A stretch of 64,000 nucleotides of DNA from Rhizophagus irregularis (taxonomy: Eukaryota): NCBI RefSeq assembly GCF_026210795.1, contig NC_089432.1, forward strand, positions 3,286,001-3,350,000. The letters run 5' to 3'. The notes under the pieces are model-generated. The model was not told where the DNA came from. It did no database searches and saw only the letters and a program-made list of their open reading frames with translations. Shown here in pieces: positions 17,688 through 51,954 of the stretch. A program made the position numbers and the translations under genes. Positions within the stretch are counted from its first letter, which is position 1; each line of letters begins with the position of its first letter.

Positions 17688-18002
17688 TCAACAACAACAT
17701 CCTCCCTTTAATAAAAAAATTTTTTTCACTTTCTTTAACCTAATTTTCATGTAGTATATATTTTAATAGTACTCTCTCAAAAATTTCATAATGACGTCAT
17801 TGTTTTATATATTACGCAATTACTGCGTTACTGACTTTTTTTGTTTGATAATACCAAATACCAAAATCACGCTGTACTACATCGGAGAAAAAAAAAATTT
17901 ATATAATAAGCACACACAATAAAACTAACAATTTTTACTTTTCATTTTTTTTTTTAACTTTCTGTTAACTTATTATTATTCAATACGTTCGATAATATCA
18001 AA

Positions 18003-19668
18003 ATGCAAGATACTGAAAATACAAATGAATGGGTTAATTGGATTGAAGAAGCAGTTGATAAAGAACATTTAAAATTTTATAAATATGAAGAATTTAATAA
18101 GATTCAATGTATTGGTACTGGAAGTTTTGGAAACGTATATCGTGCAAATTGGAAAAATTCAGAAAAACTATTTGCGTTAAAATCTTTTTTTAGTCTTAAT
18201 AACATCACCATGAAAGAAATAGTTCGTGAGGTATTTTAATGTATAATACATTTTTTTCTATCTATGAAATTTTATCTAATACCTATCTTTATTTCAAATA
18301 TTTTTATTTTTTATTCAGTTAAAAATTCAACGCCAAGTTGATTTTCATGATAACATTATTCGTTACTATGGAATAACAAAACTTGAGTCAGGTATTATTA
18401 ACATCACCTTGTATAAATATAATACGCAAAATTTTACAAAAGTTCATTTTAATTATTTCTTTTATTCATTAGAAAATCATAATAATTATGGATTAGTAAT
18501 GGAATACGCTGACGACGGTACTCTTCGAAGTTATTTAAAGGAAAATTTTAACAAACTTACTTGGGATGATAAATATAATATGGCATACCAGTTATCTTGT
18601 GCCGTATCATGCTTACATAACGAAAGAATAGTACATCGTGACTTGGTAATTTATTTATTATTTAATCATTAATAGTAATGTATTTTGTATTATTAATTTA
18701 AAAAAAATTGTTTATACATGTTTCTTTAATAGCACTCCTGTAATATACTAGTCCGTAATAACACAATCAAATTAGCAGATTTTGGATTATCTCAAAGAAT
18801 TGGAGCATCATCCAATTTTCAATCTAAATTATTTGGTGTGGTTCCTTATGTCGATCCAAAAAGCTTTAGTAGACGAAAAAATAATAATAATCAATCAACA
18901 CAAATGTACTTATTAAATGAAAAAAGTGATATTTATAGTATAGGCGTATTATTTTGGGAAATATCTAGTGGTCAACCTCCTTTTTATGTTGAGGATGAAC
19001 ATTATGATGTTGGTTTAGTTGTGGAAATTTCACAAGGTCTTAGAGAAATTGTTGTTCCTGACACTCCTGAAGAATATGTTAAAATTTATACTAGTGAGTA
19101 AAATTTAAAAATTTAAATTCTACATTTTTATAATTTAAAATATTATTTTAATTAAATCTTAAATTACATTTATTTCTTAGAATGTTGGGATGGGGAACCA
19201 GATAATCGTCCAACTATATATCAAGTAGTTGATTGGTTAAATGCAATAATTACAAAATCAGATGTAATAATAGAAAATCATCAAATGTCAAATGAACAAG
19301 AACTTAATGAGACTTCTTTAAGTACTAATAATTCAGAATTACAAGGTCAACTTATTCAAAATTTTGATAAAATGATTATTAAAGAAATTGGTCCTATGGC
19401 AATATCAAGTAAACAAGAAAATCATTCAACTGAAAAAGATTTTAACATTATGGTTGATGATAATTGGTCATATGTGATGGGTATAACACCATCAACAGCT
19501 ACGCAAGTGGCTAGCCCAATATCTCCCGTCAGTGTGATCAATCCTAATTATTCCTATCCTATACAAGACGAAGAAGAAGAAGGTGAATGGTTAACTGAAG
19601 ATGAACAAGAGGAGACTCCCGTCAGTGTGATCAATACTAATTATTCCCATCCTATACAGGACGAATAA
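18003..19668 (+). CDS. TKL-type protein kinase whose C-terminus is copied from the SP-RING gene
   Basis: Exons 18003-18230, 18319-18391, 18473-18645, 18733-19093 and 19181-19668 splice in frame. Motifs: GTGSFG, ALK, HRDLH, DFG, KSDIYS. Confidence 0.85.
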
Positions 19669-19870
19669 GAAGAAGGTGAATGGTTAACTGAAGATGAACA
19701 AGAGGAGATAGTTTTAGACTCGTCAAGCGCTGATATAAAAAAAGAAGGATTTTAATTGCTTAAAAGTAATATTATTTTTTTTTCGGTATGGCTATAATTA
19801 ACAAGAAAAAGAATAAAATTTAATATCATGAGATCTTAATTAATTAATTGCCTCAAATTTTATTATATTC
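19460..19870 (+). repeat. Duplicated copy of the SP-RING gene 3' end and 3' UTR (source ~5522-5949)
   Basis: NWSYVMGITPS...ATQVASPISPVSV.NPNYS.PIQDEEEEGEWLTEDEQEE is shared; DNA identity continues through GGATTTTAATTGCTTAAAAGTAATAT to GCCTCAAATTTTATTATATTC. Confidence 0.95.
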
Positions 19871-22800
19871 ATACTCCTTTAATTCTTCTTTCATCGGTCT
19901 TTCTGTTTCCTGATATATTACTTTCAACGATTGCCCCATAACTATAAATTTTTGTCTGTCTAAAATTTTTCTTCTTTACTATCTTCTATCACGCGATTAT
20001 TTGTCTCTTTTTTATTTACTTGTCTAAAGTCTAAACTCATTAATTATCTGTACCACCTCATCATAAATCGTATTTTCATCTAACTTCTTTGTTTATTCAT
20101 TATGGATGTTTTGGTGTAATAAGAAAAAAAAAATTTTAACTATTGTAGTAAAAAAAAAACCGGGTAATCTCAGTCTGTTACACAAGAGCGCGATCGAATA
20201 TATTTTATGCCTCGTATAATAGGATAGCATGTTTAAGGAGCGCGGATTAACACGTTGCTTTATTATCTTTTGTAATATGTAGATTAATTAAAACAATCTA
20301 TTCTTATTCACGCGCTTCATAAGAGTTTTAAAAAAAAAATTCACGGATATTGATGTTATAATAATAAGGTTATTATGCATGTAAGTACGTACAATTAATA
20401 TCCGATCTCTGAAATAATTTTTGCGCATTAAAAAAATCCTGTGCGTTTTGTTTCGTCAATAATCTTTTTTTTCATTATTATTGATATTATTTCATTTTCT
20501 TATTATTATTGATATTATTTCATTTTTCTAAATTACTCTAAATTTATGACGTTATGTCCAATCATTTTCCGATCATTTTCAAAAAAGAATATAATTTTAA
20601 CGAAAAAAAATTTTTACAAGTACAGTATATGATTGATTATTACTTTGTATCATAAACTTAATGTTCACTATAAAAGATTTTAAATATATATTATATCACA
20701 ATCGGATTTATATATTTTAGAGATAAATTTTCATATATTTCTTAGATAAAAAGTTTTATATAATCGTTTATATAATAATAAATAATTATAGACACAAAAA
20801 CAATTAAGCAATGGCCCGATCTTAAATATGTCCATTCAACCTTTTCTTTTTCTGTTTCAAAATACTAAAACGCCAACAGAGTCAAAAATTTTTAATAATT
20901 CGTTTATATACTAATAATAAACGATTTTAACGCATCCATTCACGTCTTTTATTGTAAAATATACGTAAAAAAACAATATCTATACGTAATTTTGTGCAAT
21001 GTTAAATATTTAAATACGTCGGTTTTGTATCTTTTTTTTATCTCCTACGCATATTATTGTTATATCCTCTTTAACATATGTTATACAAACGAAAATACCT
21101 TCTCAAAGAAGAAAGAAGATAAAGAATCGTAAGGCATTTTCGACTTAACATACTTATTAATAATGGAAGCACATTGAGGTTTGTCGCGAACCTTCAATTT
21201 TTCAACGGATTTTCTTTTTATTAACTCCAAAAAATTATAACTAATGAAAAAAATGAATAAATTTGGCAAGTAATTAATCAGAATTTTTTTGTTTATAATA
21301 TAGTAATATAAATTGGAATACTATATCATTGTTTAATGGATGGAATAGAAAATTCAGGGCAATTTTATAGATAATAATAAATATAGTCTTCATTTGTTTA
21401 ATGAAAATAAATTAAAAATGGTAAGTCCTTTTCTAAGTTTCATCTATATAATAACTAAAATTATCTGCTCGTTTCAAGATATGATCGTGTATTTCTGCAT
21501 TTCAGGATATGATATCATTAATTCGTCATAATAAATTTCCTTTAAATAATTCTACCTTTGTTAAAATCTTAACAAAGGTCACAATCTATTTGACTTGGGG
21601 TAATATCAAGTCTCACCCATGGTGAGGAATAATTTTACCCTTTTTTATAATTACAAATTGATTTTTTTTTTTTAATCTCTAATAACCAAAAAACAATAAT
21701 TTTTTTTGTCTCGAAAAAAAATAAAAAAAAATCTCATCTGTTTTTTTTAAAAAAAAAAAAATTTTTTTGGTTATTATCCATGGTTGGAGAATAATAAGAA
21801 AGAAGGAGATAAAGGAAAAAAAATAACGAATAAAGAAAAATAAAAAGTACACTTAATTATTAAATGTCCTGAGAGATTTATTAGCTGTTAGAATTACTTT
21901 TTAATTCTCTCGAAATTTAATATCTTTTTTAGACTAATCATTAAGATTAATAAATTATGCTTGTAATTCTAGTTCAGGCGATTCACCATATTCTTTTCGC
22001 CTCCCTTCTAATGCTGCTAATGCGTCTTCATCTATTGGTGTAGATGGTGTAGATGGACCATTAGATGGTCTCTTTGATCTTTGACCATTTGAACTCCTTC
22101 TCTTTACATACCGTCGAGTACTTTTCACGTGGTTGAAGATTTAACCAGCCGGAAGGTATTGGTAGTCTTGAGAAACTTACTCTATTATTAGATAATGGTG
22201 AAGAGAAGTAAGCTGCATCTTGATGATGAGCTAGGAGTTCCAAGGGTTCCTATTGATACTGCAGCTTCGACTACTGCATAAGCTTAACCTAATTTATGAT
22301 TTCTCAGGCAATTATTATATTTCTTTCTTTATTAGGTTACCTAATTATAAAAATTTGTTAATCGTTTGATCATCTCTAAATTTATAGTAGACAATTAATT
22401 AAAAGCGTAATTAAATGAAATAAAGTAGTTGTTTATTTCGTCAAAGAATTCAATTAAATCTTTTTTTTTTTTTTTTTTTTTAATGATTTATATATGCTTT
22501 ATTGATATGTAGTTTATATACCATACAAACAAATTATCATAAGCTATAAATTCAATTTAATCTAAATCATAAAAAATAAAATATTTAATTTGCAACTTCA
22601 GGATAATCTAAAAAAATATAAATTATTGCGGTACAATATCAGATATGTCTACTATTTTCATTTTTTTTTCTTAGAATATTACCCGCCTCCGGTTAAATCA
22701 ATATAGTTTTTTTGAATTTTTAAATTTAAGGAAAAAAGCACTAAGTTTCATATAGTTATTAAAAAGAGTACATTTTCTCACTCTTTGACCCACTAACTTG

Positions 22801-25499
22801 AGTTCATCATATAACTTTTATTATTCAAACGAATGGCGCAGTAAAATTAATAAACTGGACGTTTTATAAAGGAAGATTTATAATTACTTTAGCTTATACT
22901 CTACTTTCGCTAAAATTTGACCAAAGTTATATTATTCTTAATTTAAGATTACGCGTAACTATAAATAATTTTTCCATTTTCCATTTTCGATTTTTTTTTC
23001 TGTCACTTTCAAGAAATCTTGAGGGAAGAACTATTACATTCATGTTTACTCATTGTTATTGACATTTTTAATAGAACTTTTATTATTTCGAAACAACCAT
23101 TTTATGAGGCTTTTCCATATATTTCAATTAATTTTTCATGAGTAATAAATAAATTAATCAAATGTGTATTTGGTGATATTAATTATAAACAATTATTTAA
23201 TATTTTCGAATATTCTGTATTGAAAAAAAAATCATTTTCATTTTCAACTCTAAAGTACTTCTAAAGTGTAATATTATATTCTGTCCTGAATGTCGAATTT
23301 TGATTAGGTAATATTAAACCTGAAAATTCATTATTTAATTGTCTAAGGAAAGTTAAAATATACTGTAAGTACTATAATTCTCAAAAAAAAAAAAAAAATT
23401 TGGGAGTAATAAAATTTGTAACGTCAGAAAGATGATGATTTATTTATACAATAGAATTAAAAATTTGTCTTTATAATTTTATAGTGAATAAGATGTTAAT
23501 GATAATAATTAAGAGAAGCTAATTTACCAAAAACTTCAAATCTTTCTTTACTAAATTTAATTATATAAGTAGTCGATTGAAATAATAAAACTACTTTTAA
23601 ATATTTTAATAATCTTTTATATCTGCAGTTTTTTTGTACTATAAGTAATTTTTTCTATTTTGGTATTTATAAGGAATAATAATAATTGTATAAGGAATAA
23701 AAATGATGGTTAGATCATTTACTTACATACTGTATTTCACAATATTGAGTCCATATTACCATTAAATGGGAAAGAAAAATGTTAATAAAAATGCTAACGA
23801 ATAACGATAATGTATATTATTCCTTTAAACAAAAATGGAGTGATTAAAAATTTAATAATTTTCATTTGATTTATTATTATATTTTCATATGGAGATTAGC
23901 TATCAAATTATTTGGATGAAGACATACTATCATGAATCATGTTGTAACATTCTATAAACTTTACACATCAATAAATTTTACGCATGGTCAATATAATAAT
24001 GATCATTAAATTTATTTATATAATATAATAATAGTGTTGACATATCAGACAACAACAAGATGAACTTCAAGTTTATAATTGTAAACCTGTTAATTCTAAA
24101 GTGCAGATTATCCTTAAGTTACAACCCATATATATAAAAGTTGAAACAAATGAAATTGTGTTTGGGAATTATTAAATAAGTAATATAAAAAAGTAGAATA
24201 CCTAAAACTCGAGTTAAGGAATTAATTGAATAGATGGGATGTATACAGTGAAATTTGATATAATGGAACCATCCATTCCATTAGTAAATTTGTCAAAAAT
24301 CCATTATATCAAGAATCCTTGTTGTATTAAAGGTAAATTAATTATAGACTCTAATTCTGATATATCAAGATTTTACTTATCAGTATATCAAATTTTATTG
24401 TGTACAACACAACAAATTTTTAATGCAATTAAGTAATTTCTCAATAATGTAATACTTATTATACATACCTTAAAAATGAAGGAGATTTAAATAATAATTA
24501 TTTTGGAAAAGCCACAACATAGTATTTATCTTAGTTCTGTTTTAAAGATAAAAATGTTATTGCTTTAACAGAAATAAGTGAGGTTTTATACAATCACTAC
24601 AAAGACTACAAAAGATATAATTGTTGATACAAAGTTACAAATTGAAATTTTGCAAAACCACTGGTAGTTCATTAGCAGGAAAACTCTTTGAAATGTTGGT
24701 TCATGATATGATATATAAAGGTTAAGTAGTTGCACCATTCTTGAAGTTGAAAATTTTGAGTCTGTTATTAGTGCTATCTATTATGCCTTGTAATAACATT
24801 AATTATTAATATTATATAACAATAGTAGAAATACATAAGGCATTTGATGATGTTCTAAACATTATTAACAGACTTAAATTTTGGTATGGATATATGAAAT
24901 TCTTTACTTATGGCACCACTAAATATGGAAAGTTGCATTGATAGTATGCTTTTTTCTTAAAACTGAAAAGCTTGCAATACATTTTGATTGCCATAAATTG
25001 GCCAGAATTCAATATCAGCCATTGAAATGAGTATAAAAAATTTTATATTATTTATTTTACTTTTATACATCGGAATGGTTTTATATACTTATATTATCAT
25101 TTTGATAATTTATGTTTAATAATTGGAAAGCTAAAAAAAAGATTTATTTAAATTACAAACTAAGAAATTTGTAAAATAATTACTACTCTAGCCTTAGTGT
25201 TTAAATAATTCTACCAAAAAAAAAGAGAATACATATATGAATAAAATATAAAAAAAAGGAATTATTTAAATTACAAATTAAGAATCTTGTAAAATATTTT
25301 ACTAGTACTCTAGCCTTAGTGTTTAAATAAATCTAAACAACAATTTCTGTTAAATGCATAACATCAAATACACTTAAAAAAAACTATAAATTCTTATAAA
25401 AACACAAATAATTGGTTATTTTTTATCTGGTTTAATATCTAAATAAATAAATAAATAAAATTAATTCACATAAATAATTTGCAAAATTAATATACTATA

Positions 25500-28400
25500 T
25501 TACATACCTAATGACTTCAAATTAAATATACAATCATCCAAATCTTTACTTACTAGCATTTCGTTCACTTTTACATTAGCTTGTGAATCTTCACTTTCAA
25601 GAATTTCATTCACTTTTCCACTAGTAGATGATTGACTTAAATAATAAGCTTGTAAATTTCTACTTTCAAGAATTTCATTCAATTCTTTACTAGTAAAATC
25701 AAGTAAGCGACTTGTATAATATGCCTGTGAATGAGATATAGTAGCAAGGTTATTGTTATGCCCAATTGGTGCGTTTATAAATTCCATAATATTGTATTTT
25801 AATTCTTCATTAATATCTTCAACATTATATGGAGGAGCAATCCAATTTTCAATAATATTTAACACTTCTTTAGAAGATGGCCTTTTTAATGGATTTTCAT
25901 CCCAACACTTTTTCATCAATTCTACATAATGCTGTGGAGTATTTTCAATAATTTCAGGACGTTCACCTTCACAAATACTTAAACTAAGTTGAATATCATG
26001 TGCTTTATTATTATATGGTGGTATTCCAGATGTAAATTCCCACATAATCATAGAAAAACTATATATATCACTAGCTGGAGTATAGGAATTTCCTCTTAAA
26101 ATTTCAGGTGCCATAAATGGTATAACACCATAAATATCATATTTTTTCAAAAATGATTTTACAGGTTTACATAATCCTAAATCACTAATATAAATTTTAC
26201 CCTTATTATGATTTAAAATATTACCATCATGAAAATCACAATGAATAAGCTCTTGTTTATGTATATCATTAAGTCCAGAAATAATTTCAAATAACATATA
26301 TAATTTTTGATTCCAATCACTTTTGATTATTTTTGATAAGTTTCCTCTTAAATTACCTTCATTTGCATAATCCATTACCACCATATATTTCAAAGTATCT
26401 GGATCTTTTGTAAATCCATAAAAATAGATAATATAATATGAACTTAAACAACTTCCATGATATTTCCACTATAAATAATAATAATGATATATTAATATAA
26501 ATAAATATTAATTTAAATAAAAAAATAAATAATATATTATCATACTTCATTTAAAAATTCATTTAAATTTTCACTTAGATTATTATGAAGTTTAAGAATT
26601 ACTTCATTATCTTTATTATCATAAAACCAAGTAGCTTTGTATATTGTACCAAATCTTCCTTTATCAAGATACTCAACATTTTTAAATTTATCATAAGGAA
26701 TCCATTTTAATTTTTTTTCAAAAATAAAATTATCCATAATTGTATTTCCACTTTTTCCTAATCTATAAATTTAAATAATCAAAATTATTATTAAAGTTTA
26801 TATTAAAATCACATTAAAATTTAATCAACATTTACCCTAAAATTTAAACAGAAATTTAATATAATGTATATCTTAGTTATATACAATAATAACCTATATT
26901 TTAAAACTTACCAACTAAAGTAACAAAAATTTATATGAAAAGATTCAATTAATAATTATTTATAAAGTATATAACAATAGAAATAACAAATAACTTACAA
27001 GCTGTATTATCAAATTTTTAAATAAAGAATTTAGTTAGTTTAAATTATATACAAATATTATATAAATAAGTAATAGTAGAACTAAATAAATAACTTACAC
27101 CCTATAAATATTATTAAATAATTTTTTAAATAAAGAATTAGTTAGTTTAAATTATATGTAAATATTGTATAAATAAGTAATAATAGAATTAAATAAATAA
27201 CTTACTTCCTATATTATTAAACAATAATTTTTTAAAAATAAAGAATTTATTAGTTAGTTTAAATTATATGTATATATTATATAAATAGTAATAATAGATT
27301 AAATAAATAACTTACTCCCTATTTTTTAAATAAAAAATTTAGTTAGATTGAATTATATGTAAATATTATAACAATAAGTAATAATAGATTAAATAAATAA
27401 CTTAAAACTTACAATCTATTTAAATAAATAATTTAGGTAGTTTAAATTATATGTAAGTATTATATAAATATATAGTAATAGAATTAAATAAATAACTTAT
27501 AGTCTACCAACTAAAAAAATTACAAAATGATTTTTTTGTAAATATTATATAAATAAGTAATAATACTATAGAATTAAATAAATAACTTATAACTTACAAT
27601 CTATTTAAATTAAGGATTTAGTTAGTTTAAATTATATGTAAATATTATATAAATAATTAATAATAGAATTAAATAAATAACTTATAGCCTACCACCTAAA
27701 AAAATTACAAAATAATTTTTTAAGTAAAGAATTCAGTTAGTTTAGTTTAAATTATGTGTAAATATTATATATATAAATAAGTGATAATACTGTAGAATTA
27801 AATAATTAACTTATAACTTACAATCTATTTAAATTAAGAATTTAGTTAGTTTAAATTATATGTAAATATTATATAAATAAATAATATTAGAATTAAATAA
27901 ACAATTTATAACTTACAAACTAAAGAAATTACAAAATAATTTTTTAAAAAAAGAATTTAATTAGTTTAAACAATATGTAAATATTATATAAATAAATCAT
28001 AATAGAATTGAATAAATAACTTATAACTTACTAACTATAATTTTTTAATTAATGTTTTAGTTAGTTAAAATTATATGTAAATATTATAATAGAATTAAAT
28101 AAGTAACTTACAATCTATTAAATAAAAGAAATTAGTTAGTTTAAATTATATACAAATATTATATAAATAAGTAATAATAGAATTAAATAAATAACTTACT
28201 TCCTATATTATTAAATAATTTTTTTTAAATAAAGAATTTAGTTAGTTTAAAATATATGCTAAATATTATTTAAATAAGTAATATTTAAATAAGTAATAAT
28301 AGATTAAATAAATAACTTATAACTTACCAACTAAAAGAAATTACAAAATAATTTTTTAAATAAAGAATTTAGTTAGCTTAAATTATATAAATATTATATA

Positions 28401-31400
28401 AGTAAGTAATAATAGAATTAAATAAATAACATACCATCTATAAAATAATTTTTGAATAAAGAATTTAGTTAATTCAAATTATATTAAATTATATAAATAA
28501 GTAATAAAATAACTTATAACTTACAATCTATTTAAATAAAGAATTTAGTAAGTTAAAATTATATGCAAATATTATATAAATGAGTAATACTAGATTTATG
28601 ACTTACGATCTATTTAATAAAGAATTCAGTTAGTTTAAATTATATATAAATAAGTAATAATAGATTAAATAATAACCTATAACTTACCAACTAAAGTAAA
28701 TTACAAAATAATTAATTTAATTTAATAGATTAAATTATATGTAAATATTATATAAATAAGTAAAAATAGAATTAAATAAAATAACTTTTAACTTACCAAC
28801 TAAAAGAGATCACAAAATAATATTTTTAAATAAAAAATTTAGTTAGTTTAAATTATATGTAAATATTATATAACTAAGTAATAATAAGGAAATAATAATT
28901 TTATGCAGGTGTGTTGCAACGCACCCCCTTTTTGGAAATTATTAAATAGTAAATTTGCTGATCATAACGTAATCATAGATGATTGACAAATTTACTATTT
29001 AAAAATTTCCAAAAAGGGGGGGTGCGTTCAAATTTTAAACCTTTAAATAAATAACTTATAACTTACGATCTATTTAAAAATAAAGAATTTAATTAGTTTA
29101 AATTATATGTAAATATTATATAAATAAGTAATAATAAGAATTAAATAAATAACTTACTCCCTATATTATTAAATAATTTTTTAAATAAAGAATTTAGTTA
29201 GTTTAAATTATATGTAAATATTATATAAATAAGTAACAATAGAATTATACTTACTCCCTATATTATTAAATAGTTTTTTAAATAAAGAATTTGGTTAGTT
29301 TAAATGATAGAATTAAATAAATAACCTATAACTTACCAACTAAAAGAATTACAAAATAATTTTTTAAATAAAGAAATTAATTAGTTTAAATTATATATAA
29401 ATATTGTATAAATAGAATTAAATAAATAACTTACCAACTATAAAATAATTTTTAAATAAAGAAATTAATTAGTTTAAATTATATATAGATATTGTATAAA
29501 TAGAATTAAATAAATAACTTACACTCTATATTATCTAATAATTTTTTAAATAAAGAATTTAGTTAGTTTAAATTCTATGTAAATATTATATATTATAATT
29601 AAATAAATAACTTATAACTTACCAACTAAGGAAATTACAAAATAATTTTTAAATAAAGAATTTAATTTATGTAAATATTATATAAATAAGTAATAATAGA
29701 ATTAAATACTAAATAATTTATAACTTACGATCTATTAAATAAATAAAAAAATTAGTTAGTTTAAATTATATGCAAATATTATATAAATAAATAATAATAG
29801 AATTAAATAAATAACTTACTCCCTATATTATTAAATAATTTTTTAAATAAAGAATTTAGTTAGTTTAAATTATACGTAAATATCATTTAAATAAGTAATA
29901 ATAGAATTAAATGAATAACCCACTCCCTATATTATTAAATAATTTTTTACATAAAGAATTTAGTTAGTTTTTAAATTATATGCAAATATTATATAAATAA
30001 GTAATAATAGAATTAAATAAATAACTTATAACTTACAATCTATTTAAATAAAGAATTAAGTTAGTTTAAATTATACATAAATATTATATAAATGTACTAA
30101 TAGAATTAAATAAATAACTTATAACTTACGTAAAGAATTTAATTAGTTCAAATTATATGTAAATATTGTATGAATAAGTAATAATAGAATTTAAATAAAT
30201 AACTTATAACTTACCAACTAAAAAAAATTACAAAATAATTTTTTGGATAAAGAATTTAATTAGTTTAAATTATATGTAAAAATTGTATAAATAAGTAATA
30301 ATTAAATAAATATCTTATAATTTACCAACTAAAAGAAATAACAATATAATTTTTTTAAGTAAAGAATTTAGTTAGTTTAAATTATATGCAAATATTATAT
30401 AAATAAGTAATAATAGAATTAATAATGAAATAACTTACTCCCTATATTATTAAATAATTTTTTGAATAAAGAATTTAGTTAGTTTAAATTATAAGCAACA
30501 ATAAAATTAAATAAATAACTTACTCCCTATATTATTAAATAATTTTTTAAATAAAGAATTTAGTTAGTTTAAATTATATAAATATTAAATAAATATGCAA
30601 TAATAGAATTAATAAATAACTTACTCCCTATTATTAAATAATTTTCAAATAAAGAATTTAGTTAGTTTAAATTATATGTAAATATTATAACAATAAGTAA
30701 TAATAGATTAATAGAATTAAATAAATAGCTTATAACTCACCAACTAAAAGAAATTACAAAATAATGTTTTAAATAAATAATTTAGTTATTTTAAATTGTA
30801 TGTAAATATTATACAAATAAGTAATAATAGAATTAAATAAATAACTTATAACTTACCAACTAAAAGAAATTACAAAATAATTTTTTAAATAAAAAATTTT
30901 GTTAGCTTAAATTATATGTAAATATTATATAAATAAGTAATAATAGAATTAAATAAATAACTTACTTCCTATATTATTTAATAATATTTTACATAAAGAA
31001 TATAATTAGTTTAAATTATATGTAAATATTATAACAATAAGTAATAGTAGAATTAAATGAATAACTTATAACCTACCAACTAAAAGAAATTACAAAATAG
31101 TTTTTTTAAATGAAGAATTTAATTAGTTAAAATTATATGTAAATATCAAATAAATAAGTGATATATAAATAAGTAATAATAGAATTAAATAAATAACTTA
31201 TAACTTACTATCTATTTAAAAAAAAATTTAGTTAGTTGAAATTATATGTAAATATTATATAATTAAGTAATAATAGAGTTAAATAAATAACCTACCCCCT
31301 ACATTATTAAATAATTTTTCAAATAAAAAATTTAGTTTAAATTATATGTAAATATTATATAAATAAATAACTTATGACTTACAATCTATTTAAGTAAAGA

Positions 31401-34400
31401 ATTTAGTTAGGTTAAATTATATGTAAATATTAAATAAATAAGTGATATATAAATAAGTAACAATAGAATTAAATAAATAAATAACTTACGATCTATTTAA
31501 TTAAGAATTTAATGTTTTATAAATAAGTAATAATAGAATTAAATAAATAACTTACTCCCTGTATTTTTAATAATTTTTTAAATAAAGAATTTAGTTAGTT
31601 TAAATTATAAGCAACAGCAACAATAAATTAAATAAATAACTTACTCCCTATATTATTAAGTAATTTTTTAAATGAAGAATTTAGTTAGTTTAAATTATAT
31701 GTAAATATGTAATAATAGAATTAATAAATAACTTACTCCCTATATTATTAAATAATTTTTTAAATAAAGAATTTAGTTAGATTAAATTATATGTAAGTAT
31801 TTTATAAATAAATAATAATAGAATTAAATAAATAACTTATAGCCTACCGACTAAAAAAATTACAAAATAATTTTTTAAACAGAGAATTTACTTAGTTTAA
31901 ATTATATGCAAATTTTATACAAATAAGTAATAATAGAATTAAATAAATAACTTATAACTTACAATCTATTTAAAAAAGAATTTAGTAGTTAGTTGAAATT
32001 ATATGTAAATATTATATAATTAAGTAATAATAGAGTTAAATAAATAACCTACCCCCTACATTATTAAATAATTTTTCAAGTAAAAAATTTAGTTTAAATT
32101 ATATGTAAATATTATATAATAAATAACTTATGACTTACAATCTATTTAAGTAAAGAATTTAATTAGGTTAAATTATATGTAAATATTAAATAAATAAGTG
32201 ATATATAAATAAGTAATAATAGAATTAAATAAATAAATAACTTACGATCTACTATTTAATAAAGAATTTAATTAGTCTAAATTATATGTAAATGTTATAT
32301 AAATAAGTAATAATAGAATTAAATAAATAACTTACTCCCTATATTTTTAATAATTTTTTAAATAAAGAATTTAGTTTAAATTATAAATAACAGCAACAAT
32401 AAAATTAAATAAATAACTTACTCCCTATATTATTAAGTAATTTATTAAATGAAGAATTTACTTAGTTTAAATTATATGCAAATTTTATACAAATAAGTAA
32501 TAATAGAATTAAATAAAAAAACTTATAACTTACCAACTAAAAAAATTACAAAATAATATTTTAAAATGAATTTAATTAGTTTAAATTATTTTCAAATATC
32601 ATATAAATAAGTAATAATATAATTGAATAAATAACTTATAACTTATGATCTATTTAAATAAAGAACTTAGTTTAAATTATATGTAAATATTAGGCCACAC
32701 AAATTCGAATTTTCGGTTCACTTCACCCGGCCGGGTCACTTTTTCAAATTTCAATAAAAAAAAGTTTATATATAAAAAATTTATCATGTGATCAGAACGT
32801 AATTTTATTGGCGGGTAAGTTTATCACGCGGCTGAGAACTTCTAGAGCGAAAATAAATTCCTCCCTTTTAAAAGTCAACCAATCAAATGTCACGATTTTA
32901 TATATAAACTTTTTTTACTAATAAACAATAAACCCTGGGTCCCCGGGTCGATTTTAAATTTCAATGTTACGTGAACTGAAAAATTGAATTTGTGTGGCCT
33001 TATATAAATAAGTAATAATAGAATTAAATAAATAACTTACTCCCTATGTTAGTAAATAATTTTTAAATAAAGAATTTAGTTAGTTTAATTATGTAAATAT
33101 TAAATAAATAAGTAATAATAGAAATTAATTATTTCTTACGATCTATTTAAATAAAGAATTTGGCTAGTTTAAATTATATGTAATTATATAAATAATTAAA
33201 TATAGAATTAAATAAATAGTAACTTACTCTCTATATTATTAAATAATTTTTAAATAAAGAATTTGGTCAGTTTAAATTATATATAAATATTATATAAATA
33301 GGTAAACAAGTAATAATAGAGTTAAGTAAGTGGCTTACTCCCTATATTATTAAATAATTTTTTAAATATATAAAGAAATTAGTTAGTTTAAATTATATGT
33401 AAATATTATAACAATAAGTAATAATAGAATTAAATAAATAACTTATAACTTACAATCTATTTAAAATTTAGTTAGTTTAAATTATATGTAAATATTATAT
33501 AAATAAAGTAATAACAGAATTAGATAAATAACTTATAACTTACAAACTAAAAAAAAATTACAAAATAATTTTTTAAATAAAGAATTTAGTTAGTTTAAAT
33601 TATATGTAAAATATTATATAAATAAGTAATAATAGAATTAAATAAATACTTCCTATATTATTAAATAATTTTTAAAATAAAGAATTTAGTTAGTTTAAAA
33701 TATATATAAATATTATATAAATAAGTAATAATAGAATTAAATAACTTACTTCCTATATTATTAAATAATTTTTTAAATAAAGAATTTAGTTAGTTTAAAA
33801 TATATGTAAATATATATTATAACAATAAGTACTGGTAATAGAATTAAATAAATAACTATAACTTACCAACTAAAAGAAATTACAAAATAATTTTTTAAAT
33901 AAAGAATTTTGTTAGCTTAAATTATATAAATAATAGAAATATATACATCTATAACTTACACCCTAGTATTATTATTAATTAATTATTAGTTAAATATAAA
34001 TATAATACAAAAGTATTTACTGTAATTAAATGTATCACTTACAATCTAGTTATTTAAATTAAGAATATAATTAGTTGAATTATTTAAAATATTAAAATAT
34101 TAACAAACAGATATAATATTGTAACTTACCATCTGTAATACAATTAATTATTAAATAGTTAATTAAATAAAGAATTCAGTTATTATTATATTATGTAAAA
34201 TAAATAAAACAAAGTAAAGAATTAAAGATTTTTTAAATAACCAATAACTTACCGACTATAGTATTATTATATTAATCATTAAATAAATTATTTAGTTACA
34301 TGAAATATAAAAAAATGATAAGTAATTCCATTATTATTCAATTATAAGATAACTTATTAACTTACGAGCTAAATTATTTAATATTATTTTTGTATATATA

Positions 34401-34725
34401 GTTAGTTTAATTTGTTATTATGTAAGGTATAAATAATTATAGTTAGTATTTAAATGTATTTACAAATAAAAATTTAATATTTTAGCATGTTTAATATACC
34501 TTTAGATTCCTTGATACTTCTTTCTTCAAATTCTTCAGGGTCACTTTCTTTGAATTCCTCAGAGCTACTTCCTTTAAATTCTTCAGTACTACTTCCTTTA
34601 AATTCAATATTACCAGAAACTAGTTTTATTATATTATAAATTTGTTTAAAAATATTAGAATTCTAATTGTATTAAATGTTTATATTATACATATGATTAT
34701 TACCTTTATCATTACTGAGAACCAT
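25500..34725 (-). CDS. TKL-type protein kinase with a micro-exon-encoded N-terminal region (predicted gene model)
   Basis: Exon 1 34725-34704 (MVLSNDK+G); exon 2 34619-34500 (120 nt, phase 1); ~69 3-nt micro-exons; then kinase exons 26762(or 26757)-26546 and 26468-25500 with KSGNTIMDNFI, DKGRFG, ILK, HCDFHDGN, DLG, MAPE. The kinase part is secure; the link to the 5' exons is inferred. Confidence 0.7.
28888..29041. mobile_element. Short palindromic insertion (MITE-like) inside an array intron
   Basis: Inverted arms AACGCACCCCCTTTTTGGAAATT...TAAATAGTAAATTTG / CAAATTTACTATTTA...AATTTCCAAAAAGGGGGGGTGCGTT interrupt a repeat unit. TSD is not clean. Confidence 0.7.
32693..32999. mobile_element. PIF/Harbinger-type MITE inside an array intron
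   Basis: TIR GGCCACACAAATTC...GAATTTGTGTGGCC; TTA TSD. Removing it restores the unit sequence AAATATTATATAAAT. Confidence 0.9.
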
Positions 34726-37144
34726 TACTATATAATTATATTAAAATTCTCTCTGACTGGAAAATGTAATATAATTTTTTTTATTATTATTAAATGCTTT
34801 TATTATATGGTATATATGGTAATAATATTATTGCAAAATGCATGCGCAAAAGCATTGATTATAAGTACAAACTTTGCACATTTGGAATAAATTGTCCATA
34901 TGATTGATGATCTTGTCAATTTTGTAGAACAATGTAGATCTATATCACCAATGTCACGTCTGCTGACATAGCATGTAGATCATGTATAGCTGAAATGTTT
35001 TATTTATTATGTTTATTTTATTAATTGTAGTTATTATATTAGACATATTTATTGTTAATTATTTTTGCTATATCAAAATATGTAATATATTTATTATAAA
35101 TAAAGCTCTGCTTTATTACAGATCCAGAGAGTGTTCGTAAGTGTTCATTCTTGGTTTGTATATAATCCCTTATTCATGTCTGATTTGTTGCACTCTATTC
35201 ACGTCTACTTGGATTGGTTTGTATAGTTTTTCTTGATATTAAATCCTTCTGCTTACCATTTGCAAATTATTGTTTACCCTGTAAGCCCTAAAGAACTGAC
35301 TTCAGTTAACGATAACTGGAATATATGTCAATCATGAATCATCAAGCCTCATTGTTGCAAAGCAAAAATCATAAAGCAAAGAAATTTCTTAACACATAAT
35401 ATAACTTAGAGTAGCAAAGATTTTGAATATCACTTTTTTAATTTTTTTGTTAAAACTAACTTGGAAATTATCAGTTATGTGACTTATATCCAAAGTGGTG
35501 ATAATACAGAGTAAACCTTCACATCATTACTATAATTTTTTAAAATTATATAATATCATGTTTCATAAAGCATTCAGAAAATGCACAATTTCATTTCACA
35601 AAATGCATCATTTGCTAATTTGACTATGGGAATTTACACTAAATTTATATTGATTTGATCACAGAATTTACATAATTTGAGTAATACAATGAATTTACTG
35701 CTTAAATTACATTTTAAATAATAATACTTATTAAATTATTAAATAATTATTTTGAATTACAGTTATCCGTAAAATTGTAGATTATTAATGAGTGCGAAGT
35801 AAAGGAGATATAAGTATTTTAGCCACGGTTTACTATATTGTGTCAGGATTTAGAATGTTGTGATGATTCAAATTAAGACAATTAATTGATTAGGTACTTC
35901 AAAAATTGGTTGATCAATTAATTTAATCTCAAATAGATTTAGTTAGATTGACTTCATAAAAAATACTGTAAAAAAAAATTTTGTTTATTGTTTTACAATT
36001 TTTTTTAAAAAAAATAATTGGCTATAGGAATGTTGAAAATGTTGAAGAATCTTTATCTGGGTCATCAAAGCTTGCATCTTCCACTAAAATTTCTAAAAGG
36101 TTATCATTCTTGGAATCAACAGCTAGTAGTCAACAACAGAAAATGAAAATTTTTTTCGTTAAAAGAAATTCAAAAATATATTAATATGTTCACTTGCTGC
36201 TAATAAGGTAATATTCTAATTACATAATTGAAACGTTCTCATATAGTAAACTAATGAATTTTTAATTTAGAAAAAATAAATTAATATTTTTTTTTTTGTT
36301 ATCTTACAATATTTAAGCAAATGTCATGTGATAGTATGCTAAAAATTATAAATGTGGATTTTAAGGGCGGAACTATGACGAGTTAAAACTGTTAAAATAG
36401 ATATAAGTAAATAAAATAAATAAACGCAAAATCGATCAATTAACCATTTAATCTTATTTATATGAATATCAATCGATTATACTTCTAGTCCTATAATCGA
36501 TAATGATACCAGCATGATGTTTGGCGCTTATAAACATTATACGCTGAATGTTTACGCTTATCAGTATTTTTAAATTTAGTAAGAATTTTAAACCAAAAAT
36601 TAGATATATGAGGAGTTTTTATCATAAAATTGTTTTGTTTGTCCAGAGCAATAAATTGTTTATTTAACACGTGGCAAGATTGAATAAGTACTTTTTCTAT
36701 CGAGATCATTGTGTTGAAAGAACATCGCACTCATTAGCGTTACTCAGCAGTTCAAACTACTGAGTAATCGTCACTTTTTTAAGGGAAAATTTTACTAAAC
36801 TTTTTATATTCCATCTCTTTTCCGTAAAAGGCCTATATTCCGGAATTAATAACCTTATATTACGGAATTTATCGAATTATTTACATTTTCCGTGAATGGA
36901 TCCACGAAAGACTCATTTTTACGGAGTTTTACAGAAATTTTTATAGGGATAAAGAAAGGTGTCAGAGATTTTTCTCAAAAAAATAATTAATTTTCTCAAT
37001 AACTATTATATTTTTTTATTTTCTTTAAAAGGTATAATAGTTTTAAATGTTTAATTAGCATTCATTATAATTAATTTAATATTATAAATATTATAAATTT
37101 AATATTACATAATAAATAATTTAATTTACATAGTAAATTGTTAC

Positions 37145-39163
37145 TAATTCTATTATTTTATAAGTTCTTCTAATCTATTTTGATCTTTTCGATATTCTTG
37201 TTTAGCTGATTTTTCATACCAGTAAATTGCTGTATATAGATCTTTTTAACTCCGTCTCCTTTTTCATATTTCAAAGCAAGATTATATTGTGCTGCCTTTT
37301 ATCCTAAATTTGCAGCTTCCCGATACAATTAAGCTGCCTTTTGCTTATCAATATTAATTCCAATTCCACTACCATAACAATATCCGTATGTAGTGATTCC
37401 TTTTAAATACCCTTATTCAGCTGATCTTTTACATAATTCAAAAGCTTTTCGGTAATCTTTATTATCACCTCCTCTAATATATAAAAGACCAAGATTATGC
37501 ATAGCCATCAAATGTCCATTATTTGCAGCTTTTTCATAAAAATACACAGCCATTTTTAAAATTTTATTAACAATTTTACCAGTTTCATAAAACCAACCTA
37601 AATTAAATTGTCCCATTGCACAATCTTTTTTAGCTACTTTTTTATAATGTAATAATGCCTGCATTTCATTCTTTGGAGTTCCAATTCCAGATTGATATCA
37701 TTTTCCAACAAAATATTGTACTAATATTTGATTCTCTTCTGATACACTCTTAAATAAATTAAAAGCTTTTTCTTCATCTTTTATTGTTCCAATTCCATAA
37801 TAATTAAAATATCCAAGTAAGAAGATTAATTCTAAAGTATTTTGATTATTTGATAACCAATTATAAATTTGAGTGTTGAAATAATCACCTTGTTCTACTA
37901 CACCCCAATCTTTTCCTTTATTTTCTTCCTTAAAAATTAGATCAACTTATTCATTAATCATAATATTAAAATTTTTTTCAAATGGAATATTTTGATTAAT
38001 TTGTTCTTTTGTGATTATCCAATCTCTTTCACTTGTATTAATATTATTGTAATTAGAATTTTGAAACTTTGAAATAAATAACATTTTTAATCTATTAACA
38101 ACTTCATGTACAGTTGGTCGTTTACTCGGTTCATTATTCCAACATTCTAATAATTAAAGAAATGTATTTGATTAAAATGAAGTGACTTAATAAGTAAAAC
38201 AAACAATGCGTTAAATCATATTTACCAGTATACAGAGTGGAATAATCGCTAGGAGTATCAGGAATAATTTCTTCTCTTCGGCCTTGTGAAATGTTATAGA
38301 TTAAACCAATCTTATTTATCTCTTCATGAAATGGTGGTTTCCCACTTGATATTTCCCAAAGTAAAACGCCAATACTATCGATCCTTTTTGATAATCCAAA
38401 ATCTGCCAGTTTGATGGAGTTCCGATGAACCAATACATTACAGGAATGCTATTATAATGAATAAATAAAATTTAATTAATGTAATTTATAAAATATTTTA
38501 TTAATTTATTAAAAAAAAATTACCAAGTCTCGGTGAACAATTTCTGGAACAAGCTAATTGATAAGTAAATTGAATTTATATTCCAACTAAGTCTCTTGAA
38601 GTTTTTGTTTAAATAGTCACGAAGAGATCCACCATCGGCGTATTCCATTATCAATAAATAATTTTTTGTTTGTTCAATTTTATTTTCTAATGAAAAGAAT
38701 AATCACTTTATTTAAAAAAAAATTTATAAGTAAATTTATATTTAGTTATTGATATTTAAATATTTACAAATACCTGATTCAAGTTTTGTAATTCCACAAA
38801 AGCGATTAATATTATCATTAAAATCTATTTCTCGTTAAAGCTTAAACTAAAAATAAAGAAATTAAAAACCTAATAAATATAAAAATAGTACACAAAGTAA
38901 TTATTTAATATATAATCGAATTTTTTTTTAATTACCTCATTAATAATTTCTTTTAAAGTAATACTGTTAAAATTAAAAAAAGATTTCAATGCAAAATAAT
39001 AATGATCATGATTTTTCCAATTTGCACAAAAAACCTTTCCAAAAGATCCAGTTCCAATCTCTTGAATATTTTTAAAATTTCAAATTCATAATATTTAATG
39101 TTTTCTATTGATAGCATCTTCAATCCAATAAATCGATTTATCAATATTTTCATTATTTTGCAT
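37145..39163 (-). pseudogene. Kinase-SEL1 repeat pseudogene
   Basis: Starts MQNNENID like the 45868 and 53836 genes. Frameshift in exon 1, deletion joining DFGLSKRID directly to SIGVLLWE, and several stops/frameshifts in the SEL1 repeats. Confidence 0.85.
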
Positions 39164-41668: not shown

Positions 41669-44360
41669 AACTGTAGTGCATCTTTATTAAGAATTATGTC
41701 TATTGACTTCCTAAATTACAAGATACGTAGAGCCAACATGTTTATACACCATGTCAACCCTATAACAGAGTATTCCGAACTATACTACTAAAATGCATTA
41801 CAGAAAAATAATAAAATAAATACAATACCTGATAAAAATAAAATATACTAAAACTAACAGACTATTCAATTTTTGAAACCTAACTATTGAATTCTAATTT
41901 TTAAAGTGTAGGATTAAAAGTGAAATGCGTAATAGCGTCCAGGTCTGCCCTGTGCAGCTTCGAAAAGATGAGTCCCAACGGTCTCACACCCAAACAGTTT
42001 ATTCCACCAAATCCCCCTTATACCTACAAAAAATAAAAGTTAGTATTCTAAACTACATTGAATGAGTCGGAATAAAATATATTTTTGTTGTTAAATTTTG
42101 TTATCAGAATCTTTTTAACGTGAATCACGTGACTTTGATTAAAAATATAATTCATTTCTCCTCATAAATCTTTTCCTTCGCTCTTCACTTCTTGTTGTTC
42201 TTCTTCTTCGTCTTTTTCCTTCCGCTGGTCTTCTTTGATGGTGATGTCTTCAGTTCTAGTTTTTCTTCTTCTGCTGCTTCTTCCTCGTTTTCTTCGTCTT
42301 CTTCTTTGTATTGGATCGTGGAAGTGGATGGAATCAGCTCTTGTTGCCTTTTTTCTAAGTAAAATGCCTTAAAAGCCTTGTTCCTCTCCTCTTCATCCTC
42401 TATGTAACTCCATTTACTCGGCGATTCTAATATTGGTCTTTTTTCGCCGATCTTCTTTTCATCTTGGTAGCGATTTTCGTTCTCCAATCTTTGTTTAAAA
42501 TTATCATTTAGGGTAGTATATTCTTGAAATATTTTCGATTTTTCCACTAAACTTATAATCTTTTGTTCTAAACGGAAAAAATTGTTTTTTTCCAAGGCCC
42601 AATTCTTTGCTTCGTCCCAGTTTTTTATCTCATGCTCCTTGCGTAGTTCGTCTACGGCCTCGACGTTAATTTTTTCCCATTCCATTTCGTTGGACGTTTG
42701 ATTGAAGATATCTTTCACTTCCTTCAATTTATCCACCAAACTTCCATCGTGGGTTGATTCTTGATACTGAACATATTTGATTTTGTTCAATGTTCTGTAA
42801 TCTTTTATGATTTCAACCACTTCTTCAGGCGCTACGTTGTCTTTCTTCAGTTGTTACCCTTTTTCTCCGAAGTGTCATTGTGATCTGGAGTATTCTCTTC
42901 TCCTACTCTCCAATTTTTGATCATCTCAACAACTTCATTTTCGTCTGGCGTCTTGCTTATCCTTAGTGGCTTATCCGCTTTTGATGGATGTAGTAAGCTT
43001 TCTTTTCGCGAAGCGAAGTTCCCTAATTCTCTGTAAATTCTCTCCGGTGGTGTTATAGGTGTCTTCGGTTCACTGGCCAGCCGTAGAGGTAATCTTATTT
43101 TATTATCTGTAGCTATGACCTTATCCTGATCTATCTTCTCTTGCGGTTTCTTCATCCTTGTCTTATCATCACCATCTTTGTATATCGTCTTTTTGTTTCT
43201 CACTAGCCAAACTCTATTGATATCTCCTTCTGTGCATGAATCCTCCACTGCTTCTTCCATTTCTTTGAGGTTCTTGAAATATCCAATCACTTTCCAATTT
43301 TTCGTGATTTTGATAATTTTGATGAACGCCGTCTTGGAAGTTTGTTGCAGTTTCTTCGTAAAATCGTATGTATTTCCCTTCTTTATGGATTCCATTTCCT
43401 CGTTAGTTAGGTCTCTCACAGTCTGCCATTGATCCCGCTCCTGTCGTCCTTTCAAGCCTAGTTTCGCGTCGTACCATCTGATGAAATTTTTGCTAATACA
43501 AATACTGAAATATCCATTCAAGAACGTTTTTTCGAAATTTTTGTTCAATGCGATTTTTGCCTTCACGGTTTTGTATTTATATTGACCTCGAATTTGCAGT
43601 CTATATACCGTTCCTATCTTCATCAGATTTGTTCTTACGTCATCCTCGCTCCAGTATTTTGGTATATCGTAGAAAATATGTCACGTGCCTCCTTGGCCTG
43701 CTGATCATTACTGGTATTTTCGGGTAAAACTGGTATCTCTAGGATTTCTTCCCGTTTTCTCCTATTTGATGTCGATCTGCCTTTATTGGATTTCTTCGGC
43801 CGATTGATTTCTTTGTTGATATCAGTCTTAACCTTTTTTAGCTCTGATCTCGTTTTCTCTACTTCTTGTGAAATTTTCCTTATTTGCTCATTTTTCTGCG
43901 ATATTATTCGTTCCTGTGTTTTCTCCAACTTGCCTTTCTTATCCATCATGTGATCTTTCCTCCGCAGTTCTTCTCGCAGCTTTGAATTTTCCCATGAGAG
44001 TCTTTTTATTTCGTCTGTATAGACATTGAAAGACATTGCTGAACACTTTAAAACTATTTCTTGTATAGTCTCTTTTCTGCGTACAGTGTCGTTCCGTATT
44101 GACTCCAGGAAGTTCTGTTCTGTTTTGCTGAGGTTAAAGTCTCTTCGTGCTCTTTCTTGGCCTTTTACCGTTATTCTTGAGTCTACACTAGAAAAATTTT
44201 TTGTTTCTTTTAGAAACCTATATCTATATTCTGTAAATTTGTATGCTGACTCCATTTTTGAGGTTTTTTATTTGGGTTTTATTAATAAAAATACTCGTAA
44301 AAGACGTTTTTCTTTCCGCTAAAAATTTGGGCAGAATGATCGTCAGAAAGAGTTCTTGTC
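41637..44360 (-). mobile_element. Poly(A)-tailed non-LTR retroposon with an ORF1-like coding region and no reverse transcriptase
   Basis: 17-bp TSD GTATGTTTTGATATATA at 41620-36 and 44361-77; T25 tract at 41637-61 is the minus-strand poly(A); contains ORFs 44255-43635, 43623-42847 and 42820-42185. Confidence 0.85.
42185..44255 (-). pseudogene. ORF1/Gag-like nucleic-acid-binding protein (coiled coil + RRM-like), split by two frameshifts
   Basis: Coiled-coil first ORF. A frame switch near 43675 gives RDIF/FYDIPKYWSEDDVRTNLMKIGTVYRLQIR (RRM-like); a second switch lies near 42855; basic C-terminal tail. Confidence 0.55.
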
Positions 44361-45330: not shown

Positions 45331-45867
45331 TTACTAATTATTTCTAAAATATCTTCTTTTATTTGCAATTTCTTAAAATTTAAAATTATATTGTCACAAT
45401 AAAATAATGTTATCTAAAATAAAATATTTTTTGTACAAATTATATATTTTCCGGTAAACTATGTAAAGGATTATCTTCTAGATTAAAAGTTCAACAGTCG
45501 AATACGAGTGATTTTTCCTAAAATTCCGATTAGTTGAATATCTTTTAAATTATATATTGTAAATTACTTAATTAATTCATTCATTTACTAAATTTATCTT
45601 TATTTTCCAAATATTTTGGTAAACTGTTGCAAAAAGAAATTTTTTTGCTGATCTGCTTGTGTAATAATACTGCTGAGGGGGAACCTTCCGGCTTCCGTAT
45701 GAAACTAATGGATTTCCTGCATAATTTGTTACACAAAATATTAATTTATACGAATCAATAAATAGAAAATTATTTTTTTTTTCTTTTTTTGACTTTTTAC
45801 CGTTAACATTTTTTATTGATTTTAACCACATCTTATACTAAAATTAAAAAATAATAACAAAAAAAAA

Positions 45868-50343: not shown

Positions 50344-51825
50344 CTACTTTTTAATTACCTGAAATACTTCATAATTCCCTACAGTAAAATTAAAAGTTGG
50401 AATACCTATATTAGGATAGCAAGTAGCATTATTATCGTTATTTTTCCAATTGTCATTACCATAACATAGGAAATAACCCATATGTGGACCTCGGGTATTA
50501 TAACAAAACATAGCCTCATTTGGTCTTTTAACATAACCTAATTTTGCAGTAGAGATATTATTTCCATCTGTAAAGTTAAATAGAAAACTATCTGCCGTAT
50601 ATTTAGGTCCATATCCATTCCAATCCAGTGGATTATATCCTCCAATTAATTGTGTTGAACCTTGGATTTTTGCTATCCAAATAGTAGCTCCTTTATTATC
50701 ACAATTTCTATGAAATGACTCAGCATTAAATCCATCCCGACCTGAATGATATAACAATTTGAAATCATAAGGAATAATTTTGTTATTGTAATATGAAGAA
50801 TCTTTTCTATCAATCCAAGAAGCTAAATGTGGTTTGATTGAATTATGGTTGAATCAAGTTTAATTTTTAAATTTGGTTTTCTTGATGGGGCTACATTAGT
50901 TTTAGGTTTTGTTTCAGGAACAATGTGAAATTCCAAAAGATCATGAATTAAGTCTTGTGGTAAAATATCTTTATAATTGTAAACTTTATAAAAGAAATCT
51001 GTAGGTTTAATATCATAAAATCTAATTAGTGGAATAAACTTGTGTAATGATCTCTCAATTCTTGTCATATCATCTTTGTTCCATTTTGTTGGATCATTTT
51101 CCATATTTTGTTGAGCAAAACACCATTTCAATAAACTTTCCCAAATCTCAATTTCGTCCATGTTTAAATCTTCCCTTTTTAACAATAATTCTAATAAAGG
51201 TGCTTTTAAATTAACAAATTTATTAGAATTAAATAAAATTCTAGGTTCTTTACAGATTTTTTCAAGACAAAAATTCCATAAATCTATGAATGTTTCATGT
51301 TGATAGACAGTTTCAAGAATACCAGTTGGATTTTGATGCAAAAATTCAGTTTGATGTTTAATCAAATATTCTTGAATATGAGAAATTAATTGTTGAATAT
51401 TTAATTCATCCACAGCTATCAACAATTTCAATACATCTGGTCCTTGTAAATTTTTCAATTCAATATTTCCACTGTAAATAAACCTAAAAATTATGGGATA
51501 GCGAAAACATTCATTAATTTTATATAAAAATATGGAATGTCAAAACCATTATAATAAATAATATTTAATACCTAAGAATGATGTCAAATAAATGAGGCGA
51601 AATATTTGGTTTTCTTAAAATAAATTTTCCATCTTTTTTTTCAGCCCATTCATTAGAAAAAGCCGTGCGAAAATATTTTGACCTAATGCATAAAATATTT
51701 GAATGAGCATGGATTTCTTTAACATTTAGTTCATCTCCTGCATAAATAATAACATCATATCCTATTTCAGTTTCAAAAAGTTTTTCATAATCATTTGATA
51801 ATTCTTCTAAAAATTTTGAAGACAT
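50344..51825 (-). pseudogene. BTB/POZ-BACK-TLDc protein with a frameshift before the TLDc domain
   Basis: DVIIYAG...IHAHSNILCIRSKYF (BTB); intron 51484-51571; BACK-like middle; stop after QSNHI at 50823, while ASWIDRKD...LYHSGRDGF...FHRNCDNKGATI (TLDc) continues in another frame. Confidence 0.85.
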
Positions 51826-51954
51826 TGTTAAGAAAAGTGTGTATTTTAGAGAGAAAAAATTTGTTAACCTATTTGAAAATAAAATTAACCTTATATATTA
51901 ATTTTATGATGATCCATGTATCAACTGCGTGTGTAACAGTTTTCTTGTAGCTGA

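Follow-up and report, generated by a model that had tools for sequence, protein, structure and literature searches.

A row of 3-nt exons within a tyrosine-kinase-like gene of Rhizophagus irregularis

We analyzed a stretch of 64,000 nucleotides from the Rhizophagus irregularis genome (RefSeq assembly GCF_026210795.1, contig NC_089432.1, positions 3,286,001 to 3,350,000), hereafter the 64-kb window, with all coordinates counted from its first base. A satellite-like repeat of about 7.5 kb on the minus strand (26912–34368) was found to form the middle of a tyrosine-kinase-like gene, located 5' of the kinase exons. This array is a real, selected, and family-wide row of 3-nt exons, supported by paralog RNA, and for the kinase gene itself a structure composed of a row of short introns and 3-nt exons is very probable. 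We lean towards the interpretation that the row of 69 introns and 3-nt exons, which in paralog RNA are found joined, likely encodes a hypervariable segment of 70 residues, which is predicted to precede the kinase as a changeable tag for recognition or binding. The function of this segment is much less certain than the gene structure.

Composition and conservation of the repeat array

Following the minus strand from 34368 to 26912, 69 intact units with the pattern YAG-NNN-GT were identified, and their 3-nt exons are separated by introns of 63–129 nt, with the exception of three longer introns (175, 267, and 504 nt). When a strict donor was required, 65 of the 68 minus-strand 3-nt matches of the whole window fell inside the array, while 3 on the minus strand and 1 on the plus strand were found outside; exon matches of 1, 2, 4, or 5 nt were absent from the array under the same strict donor. 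In line with a preliminary description of this DNA, the units belong to three families (TTG, GGA, and ATT/ATC) with exon variants inside each family, and the acceptors are exclusively TAG (66 units) or CAG (3 units). The donors comprise 56 GTAAGT and 13 variants; the variability that had been described is thus present, but the list given at that time omitted GTATTT and GTAGAC.

For an independent count of the units, nhmmer was used with a hidden Markov model (HMM) of the intron bodies alone, which avoids circularity with the splice-pattern search. The 70 resulting matches are separated by 69 gaps, of which 63 contain one intact exon, 4 represent split matches, and 2 correspond to broken units. 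Thereby, 69 of 71 intron-plus-exon units are intact. One of the broken units has kept its acceptor and triplet with a donor changed from GT to AT (32647–32649, minus strand), and the other is an orphan donor with deleted acceptor and exon (30122–30129, minus strand). The splice signals, which had been described as fixed, are therefore nearly but not absolutely so. Similarly, the exon length is 3 nt in the intact units, but its constancy is weaker evidence than had been claimed, with many of the indels in the intron bodies lying in A/T runs. The outermost units were correctly described as divergent with a preserved AG-NNN-GT: their introns reach only 0.72–0.76 with their best partner, compared to 0.76–0.98 for the other introns.

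Pairwise comparison of the introns revealed best partners scattered along the array as well as a recent block duplication inside it (31211–32246, minus strand), in which the introns after exons 18–20 match those after exons 26–28 at an offset of 8 units and with 95–98% identity. Two insertions with inverted repeats were recognized from their sequence, both of them located in intron bodies. Intron 15 contains a 307-nt insertion (32693–32999, minus strand) with terminal inverted repeats and TAA at both flanks, which we take to be a Tourist/PIF-like miniature inverted-repeat transposable element (MITE), and intron 50 contains a hairpin insertion of about 141 nt (28904–29044, no strand assigned). 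The unit with the GT>AT donor lies directly downstream of the intron carrying the MITE-like insertion.

Substitution rates were determined from 59 aligned units (58 intact units and the GT>AT unit), with 11 edge or hybrid units and the deletion unit excluded. Overall, the AG and GT positions showed 1 substitution in 236, compared to 19% (G/C) and 8% (A/T) in the intron bodies. This contrast holds for splice G (1/118 substituted versus 79/417 for body G/C, P = 2e-8) as well as for splice A/T (0/118 versus 414/5248 for body A/T, P = 1e-4), and it persists when distinct alleles are counted in order to discount shared descent (1 observed at splice positions, 14 expected, P = 1e-5). For the acceptors alone, 0 substitutions were observed and 16 were expected. 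The contrast is weak in comparison to body G alone (3/48 substituted, P = 0.07). The exon bases change at approximately the body rate (G/C 9/65, P = 0.39; A/T 14/112, P = 0.08).

Furthermore, a CTRAY branch motif was found upstream of 52 of the 69 acceptors, compared to 20% in shuffles, and the intron lengths modulo 3 are evenly spread (23/22/23). Purifying selection on the splice signals of the array is supported, since the AG and GT positions are conserved, intron lengths are even modulo 3, insertions are located in intron bodies, CTRAY motifs lie upstream of the acceptors, and the exons occur joined in paralog RNA (see below). The per-position rates thus agree with the earlier proposal that selection on splicing, rather than neutral satellite drift, has shaped the array.

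Gene model, paralog RNA, and codon phase

All exons of the gene lie on the minus strand. Coding exon 1 (34704–34725) starts with ATG, spans 22 nt, and ends in phase 1; its joint to exon 2 across an 84-nt GT..AG intron was found in 10 and 12 paralog reads and 1 contig, and the same N-terminus is annotated in paralogs. Exon 2 (34500–34619, 120 nt) contains an acidic 24-nt repeat and likewise ends in phase 1; at 34500, RNA depth falls and loose read ends begin. It is followed by the first six 3-nt exons CTC, TCG, ATG, ATT, GGT, and TTG (33867–34368), which are conserved among paralogs. Beyond the array, the first kinase exon (26546–26762) is marked by loose RNA ends starting at 26762, and the second kinase exon (25508–26468), with a PF07714/PF00069 domain and the motifs HCDFHDGN, DLG, and APE, is 100% identical to the R. 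irregularis database protein P0001. The last coding exon, including the stop, is likely 25416–25438, as the paralog P0121 shares this C-terminus. The kinase open reading frame (ORF) and its catalytic motifs are intact, matching the tyrosine-kinase-like kinases expanded in Rhizophagus, and the nearest solved structures are EGFR and CTR1.

Between the array and the first kinase exon, the base G at 26836, with TAG before it and GTAAAT after it, likely represents a 1-nt exon that shifts phase 1 to phase 2; exons of 1 or 4 nt occupy this position in 10 metagenome loci. With the acceptor at 26762, all exons joined form an open frame of 516 amino acids, 70 of them from the array, only if this G is included. 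On the other hand, an alternative acceptor 5 nt downstream of 26762 restores the frame without it. In addition, the RNA consensus at the kinase acceptor (see below) fits equally well to paralogs with an acceptor one base earlier (6 annotated LE[FYS]G proteins), so the 1-nt exon is not proven.

The current gene models are wrong at this kinase locus, and the array was overlooked by annotation. P0001 starts after the array and is 125 N-terminal residues shorter than the spliced model, while exons 1 and 2 of paralogs are annotated as separate proteins of 50–117 amino acids. Among 141 fetched proteins, 8 continue past exon 2 into CTC and the intron that follows it, and searches for transcript-derived full-length proteins returned gene-prediction products only. 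In the paralogs P0050, P0062, and P0063, the same acidic exon is preceded by an initial MG(Q/D)-C motif that might serve as a lipid anchor.

A search of sequencing runs listed none with RNA of this copy, which is no evidence for or against its expression. Therefore, polyA reads labelled with the same species, together with contig runs, were aligned to the two flanks of the array (25400–27010 and 34020–34900), and nearly all of the flank reads derive from paralogs. After exon 2, with continuations reverse-complemented by hand, two X5 contigs read CTC, TCA, ATG, ATT, GGT, TTG and then ATC, ATT, ATC, GTC, which corresponds in 17 of 18 bases to the first six exons of the analyzed gene joined together. 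In seven X23 reads and one X2 contig, exon 2 is followed by CTC, TTA, ATG, ATT, GGT, TTG and then ATC, GGT, GGC, AGC (16 of 18 bases). The chance of such a six-exon match is 1e-5. Past the sixth exon, the paralog RNAs diverge from one another and from the analyzed copy. None of the 141 fetched proteins contains the six-exon stretches as contiguous sequence (paralog DNA itself being outside this comparison), and 8 of them read into the CTC intron as mentioned above, which indicates that the paralogs have introns as well. In two X22 reads, exon 2 is spliced to CTC while the following intron is still present, which would be expected of an intermediate of stepwise splicing. The reads at the kinase acceptor (73 and 64) yielded a consensus ending with CTT, TTG, A, which is in frame only in phase 1.

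The exons do not serve as codon units. Instead, they straddle codons: in phase 1, each codon consists of the last base of one exon and the first two bases of the next, so that every amino acid is derived from two exons. Combinations of TTG, GGA, and ATT/ATC units yield 11 amino acids in this phase (V, G, D, I, R, N, F, W, Y, L, and H), and none of the 12 main unit pairings creates a stop; stops arise in 48 of 2346 possible joins and in 4 of 69 single skips. The predicted product of the array is a polar, aromatic-rich 70-mer (R11, D8, G8, W6, F6, I6, and N6). Since every unit adds one whole short intron and three coding bases, the frame is preserved when units are gained, lost, or skipped.

Relatives in metagenomes and known micro-exon systems

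A scan of metagenomes yielded 33 loci, 16 of which were excluded because they start in or after the first kinase exon, have no upstream DNA, or are unrelated. Micro-exons were identified in 15 of the 17 remaining soil-metagenome loci, which have DNA upstream of the first kinase exon; the two loci without a micro-exon (L009 and L010) offer only 76 and 112 upstream bases. All 21 inner micro-exons are 3 nt long, and the introns between them are 68–89% alike to introns of the array. Where two bases are required by the next exon, the row closes with an exon of 1 nt (5 loci) or 4 nt (5 loci), and where a single base is required, with one of 3 nt (5 loci); all of these cases correspond to phase 1. 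Nine of the 10 loci with a 1- or 4-nt last exon were computed and one (L011) was read by eye. A second 1-nt match in L001, only 22 nt after the first and thereby too close, was dropped, as were overlapping 6- and 8-nt parses in L011, L018, and L023. In the opposite-strand control, 4 matches were obtained in 26,648 bases, none of them 3 nt. While the metagenome contigs are short and array lengths cannot be read from them, the layout persists in loci with 54–74% kinase identity.

Rows of 3-nt exons that end without a 1-nt exon were also observed in more distant kinases of the WTSGNEFIDKFIQ type (L013, L014, L017, L023, and L029), which implies that such arrays reach beyond the kinase subfamily of the analyzed gene.

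Arrays of codon-sized exons are already known; new here are the other lineage, the location at the N-terminus of a kinase, the split codons, and the lack of annotation. Iotti et al. 2012 is reportedly the original paper on the mini-exons of the Tuber nank genes. As far as they are described in the passages compared, these NACHT-ankyrin genes of Tuber melanosporum contain tens of alternatively spliced 3-bp mini-exons (PMC4986451, PMC9815663, PMC10197012, PMC13449251, PMC3689799). The analyzed gene resembles them, on the basis of these passages, in belonging to an expanded family of a mycorrhizal fungus with dozens of 3-bp exons, for which a role in the diversification of a recognition region is proposed, and its 69 intact units fit the description of tens of 3-bp exons in one gene. 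In contrast to nank genes, it originates from Glomeromycotina, encodes a tyrosine-kinase-like protein without NACHT or ankyrin match, and carries its array at the N-terminus rather than the C-terminus of a NACHT-ankyrin NOD-like receptor (NLR). Furthermore, the Rhizophagus array is characterized by phase-1 split codons, introns that are tandem copies, and a closing 1- or 4-nt exon; exon phase and intron repeats lie outside the nank descriptions compared. The array probably works like a nank-type array, but the gene is not a member of the nank family.

Other systems share single aspects, again to the extent that the compared text describes them. Schistosoma micro-exon genes (MEGs) likewise contain many serial short exons, mostly multiples of three, that were overlooked by annotation; they are described with 10–20 exons of mostly 15 bp, introns of 0.1–5 kb, and secreted products (PMC10526429). 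Neither exon nor intron sizes agree with the 69 exons of 3 nt and introns of mostly 63–129 nt found here, and in place of a secreted protein encoded mostly by micro-exons, the product is a kinase with an acidic N-terminus and an array contribution of 70 of 516 amino acids (no signal-peptide predictor was run). In Podospora HNWD/NLR genes, closely similar tandem units are also reshuffled within and between paralogs and vary a protein segment, but these units are protein repeats that evolve under positive selection (PMC4986451). In Rhizophagus, it is the introns that are homologous, each unit codes with three bases, and positive selection was not observed. A constitutively spliced internal 1-nt exon has been described for Arabidopsis APC11 (PMC4674806); it is an isolated case, whereas the 1- or 4-nt exon of the Rhizophagus family closes the array as a family-wide frame adaptor. 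No papers on micro-exon arrays in Rhizophagus or Glomeromycotina were found in a search that did not extend to subscription papers and supplements, which may bear on novelty, and the accessible part of the long-read annotation paper of the fungus makes no mention of micro-exons.

Weighing of explanations and significance

Several observations weigh against a spliced, hypervariable recognition segment in the analyzed copy. The base specific to this copy at 26759 was found in 1 of 200 covering reads, and no read is at least 99% alike on the 5' part (flank 34020–34900). The longest run matched to genomic exons is six, from reads aligned to the flanks and not to the array core. The larger groups of loose ends at 34500 (X22, 43 reads, agreement 0.59; X23, 44 reads, agreement 0.67) are mixtures and not micro-exon-like, and the 3' consensus is a mixture as well (agreement 0.69 and 0.76). 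The RNA data on the exons consist of loose ends with a 30-letter consensus. In addition, CTRAY is missing in 17 of 69 units, and weak donors occur in a few; the lack of stops in phase 1 does not reach significance (P = 0.13); the unit alignment, with exon rates close to those of the intron body, gives no sign of diversifying selection on exon bases; and for L007 and L014 the acceptors are the analyst's own choice, with L011 judged by eye.

A serious rival, to which we assign a substantial though clearly minor chance, is that the exons are spliced but that the peptide is a dispensable linker: the unit would amplify because it is frame-safe, and splice sites would be kept only for a clean kinase mRNA. 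The body-like rate of the exon bases is in agreement with this, as are the two broken units, further broken units seen by eye in L008 and L023, and the tolerated insertions, and selection on donors could be explained by the avoidance of read-through. However, acceptors are as strictly kept as donors, with 0 substitutions where 16 were expected, even though the loss of an acceptor merely skips one exon in frame; this argument is softened by the harm that an orphan donor could nevertheless do under intron definition. A mere linker would also sit poorly with the conservation of the first six and last two exons among paralogs and with a layout kept at 54–74% kinase identity. It is improbable that only the end exons are used, with the middle mostly skipped or the copy being a silent, decaying paralog. 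Own-gene reads are nearly absent, two units are dead, two insertions and weak donors are present, and the error-free removal of about 70 introns would be costly, all of which would suit such a scenario. Yet, the conservation test was based on the middle units themselves, paralog RNA shows ATC/ATT/GGT-like triplets past the sixth exon and before the last two, and the kinase ORF and motifs are intact.

Two further explanations have little left in their favor. Reading the exons as whole codons in phase 0, which would give a hydrophobic membrane segment rich in Gly, Ile, and Leu, is very unlikely to be correct: while this frame is stop-free (grand average of hydropathicity (GRAVY) of 1.9), would be opened by an out-of-frame second ATG in exon 1, and is used by the database models P0050, P0071, and P0078, the RNA junction at 26762 leaves phase 0 out of the kinase frame, and the first ATG together with the joint of exons 1 and 2 gives phase 1, as do the metagenome loci. 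Moreover, the 5-nt exon needed by these three models has no GT here. The hydrophobic reading is thus largely refuted by the 26762 junction, the exon 1–2 joint, and the absent GT. Least likely of all, with a negligible probability, is a neutral satellite within one long intron that arose from a duplicated intron junction. Repeat finders do label the array as satellite, and P0001 begins after it, but the constraint on splice positions and the exons joined in paralog RNA refute this explanation, and the phase-1 layout of the metagenome loci contradicts it as well.

If the array encodes a recognition segment, as we favor, it could operate as follows. Each intron, equipped with its own donor, branch motif, and acceptor, would be removed singly by intron definition and leave three bases behind, which is seen for paralogs and presumed for this copy. 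Pairs of phase-1 exons build each codon. Units are duplicated and reshuffled in the DNA, with paralogs sharing both ends and differing in the middle, and unequal crossing-over in the shared intron body is presumably the cause. The 1-nt exon would then restore the kinase frame, resulting in the 516-amino-acid protein. Putative exon skipping would give rise to somatic variants: with every skipped exon, one residue would be lost and the adjacent one recoded. By analogy, the segment may participate in non-self sensing. As a tentative and rather doubtful extension, much of the expanded set of kinases in arbuscular mycorrhizal (AM) fungi might hide a split-codon library, in which three kinds of units, shuffled in DNA and skipped in RNA, would use an 11-amino-acid alphabet, with every residue stemming from two exons, to provide each kinase with a somatically and genetically variable sensor peptide of a diversified non-self receptor system that annotation has overlooked.

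For R. irregularis, a number of 2,533 kinase genes is given in the literature (PMC10234402). If many of these approximately 2,500 genes carry an unannotated hypervariable N-terminal segment, a role in sensing would be suggested. Moreover, the analyzed gene represents an extreme natural test of splicing, with about 70 consecutive 3-nt exons, a likely 1-nt exon, and two broken units as natural controls.

Five further kinase genes are located in the window (17958–19668, 37413–38448, 45826–48145, 53779–56511, and 61258–63317). They have no 3-nt exon array, and several of them encode C-terminal Sel1-like repeats (labelled by eye). The regions 42185–44267 and 50344–51897 contain retroelement-like ORFs and a BTB/TLD-like gene, also labelled by eye. 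The 3' part of one kinase-like gene (19457–19875, ORF 19156–19668) copies the region 5519–5953 at the end of an upstream gene (4876–5781), with 97% identity over 37 nt and 75% over approximately 400 columns. It also contains a 93-nt tandem duplication and is likely a captured gene fragment.

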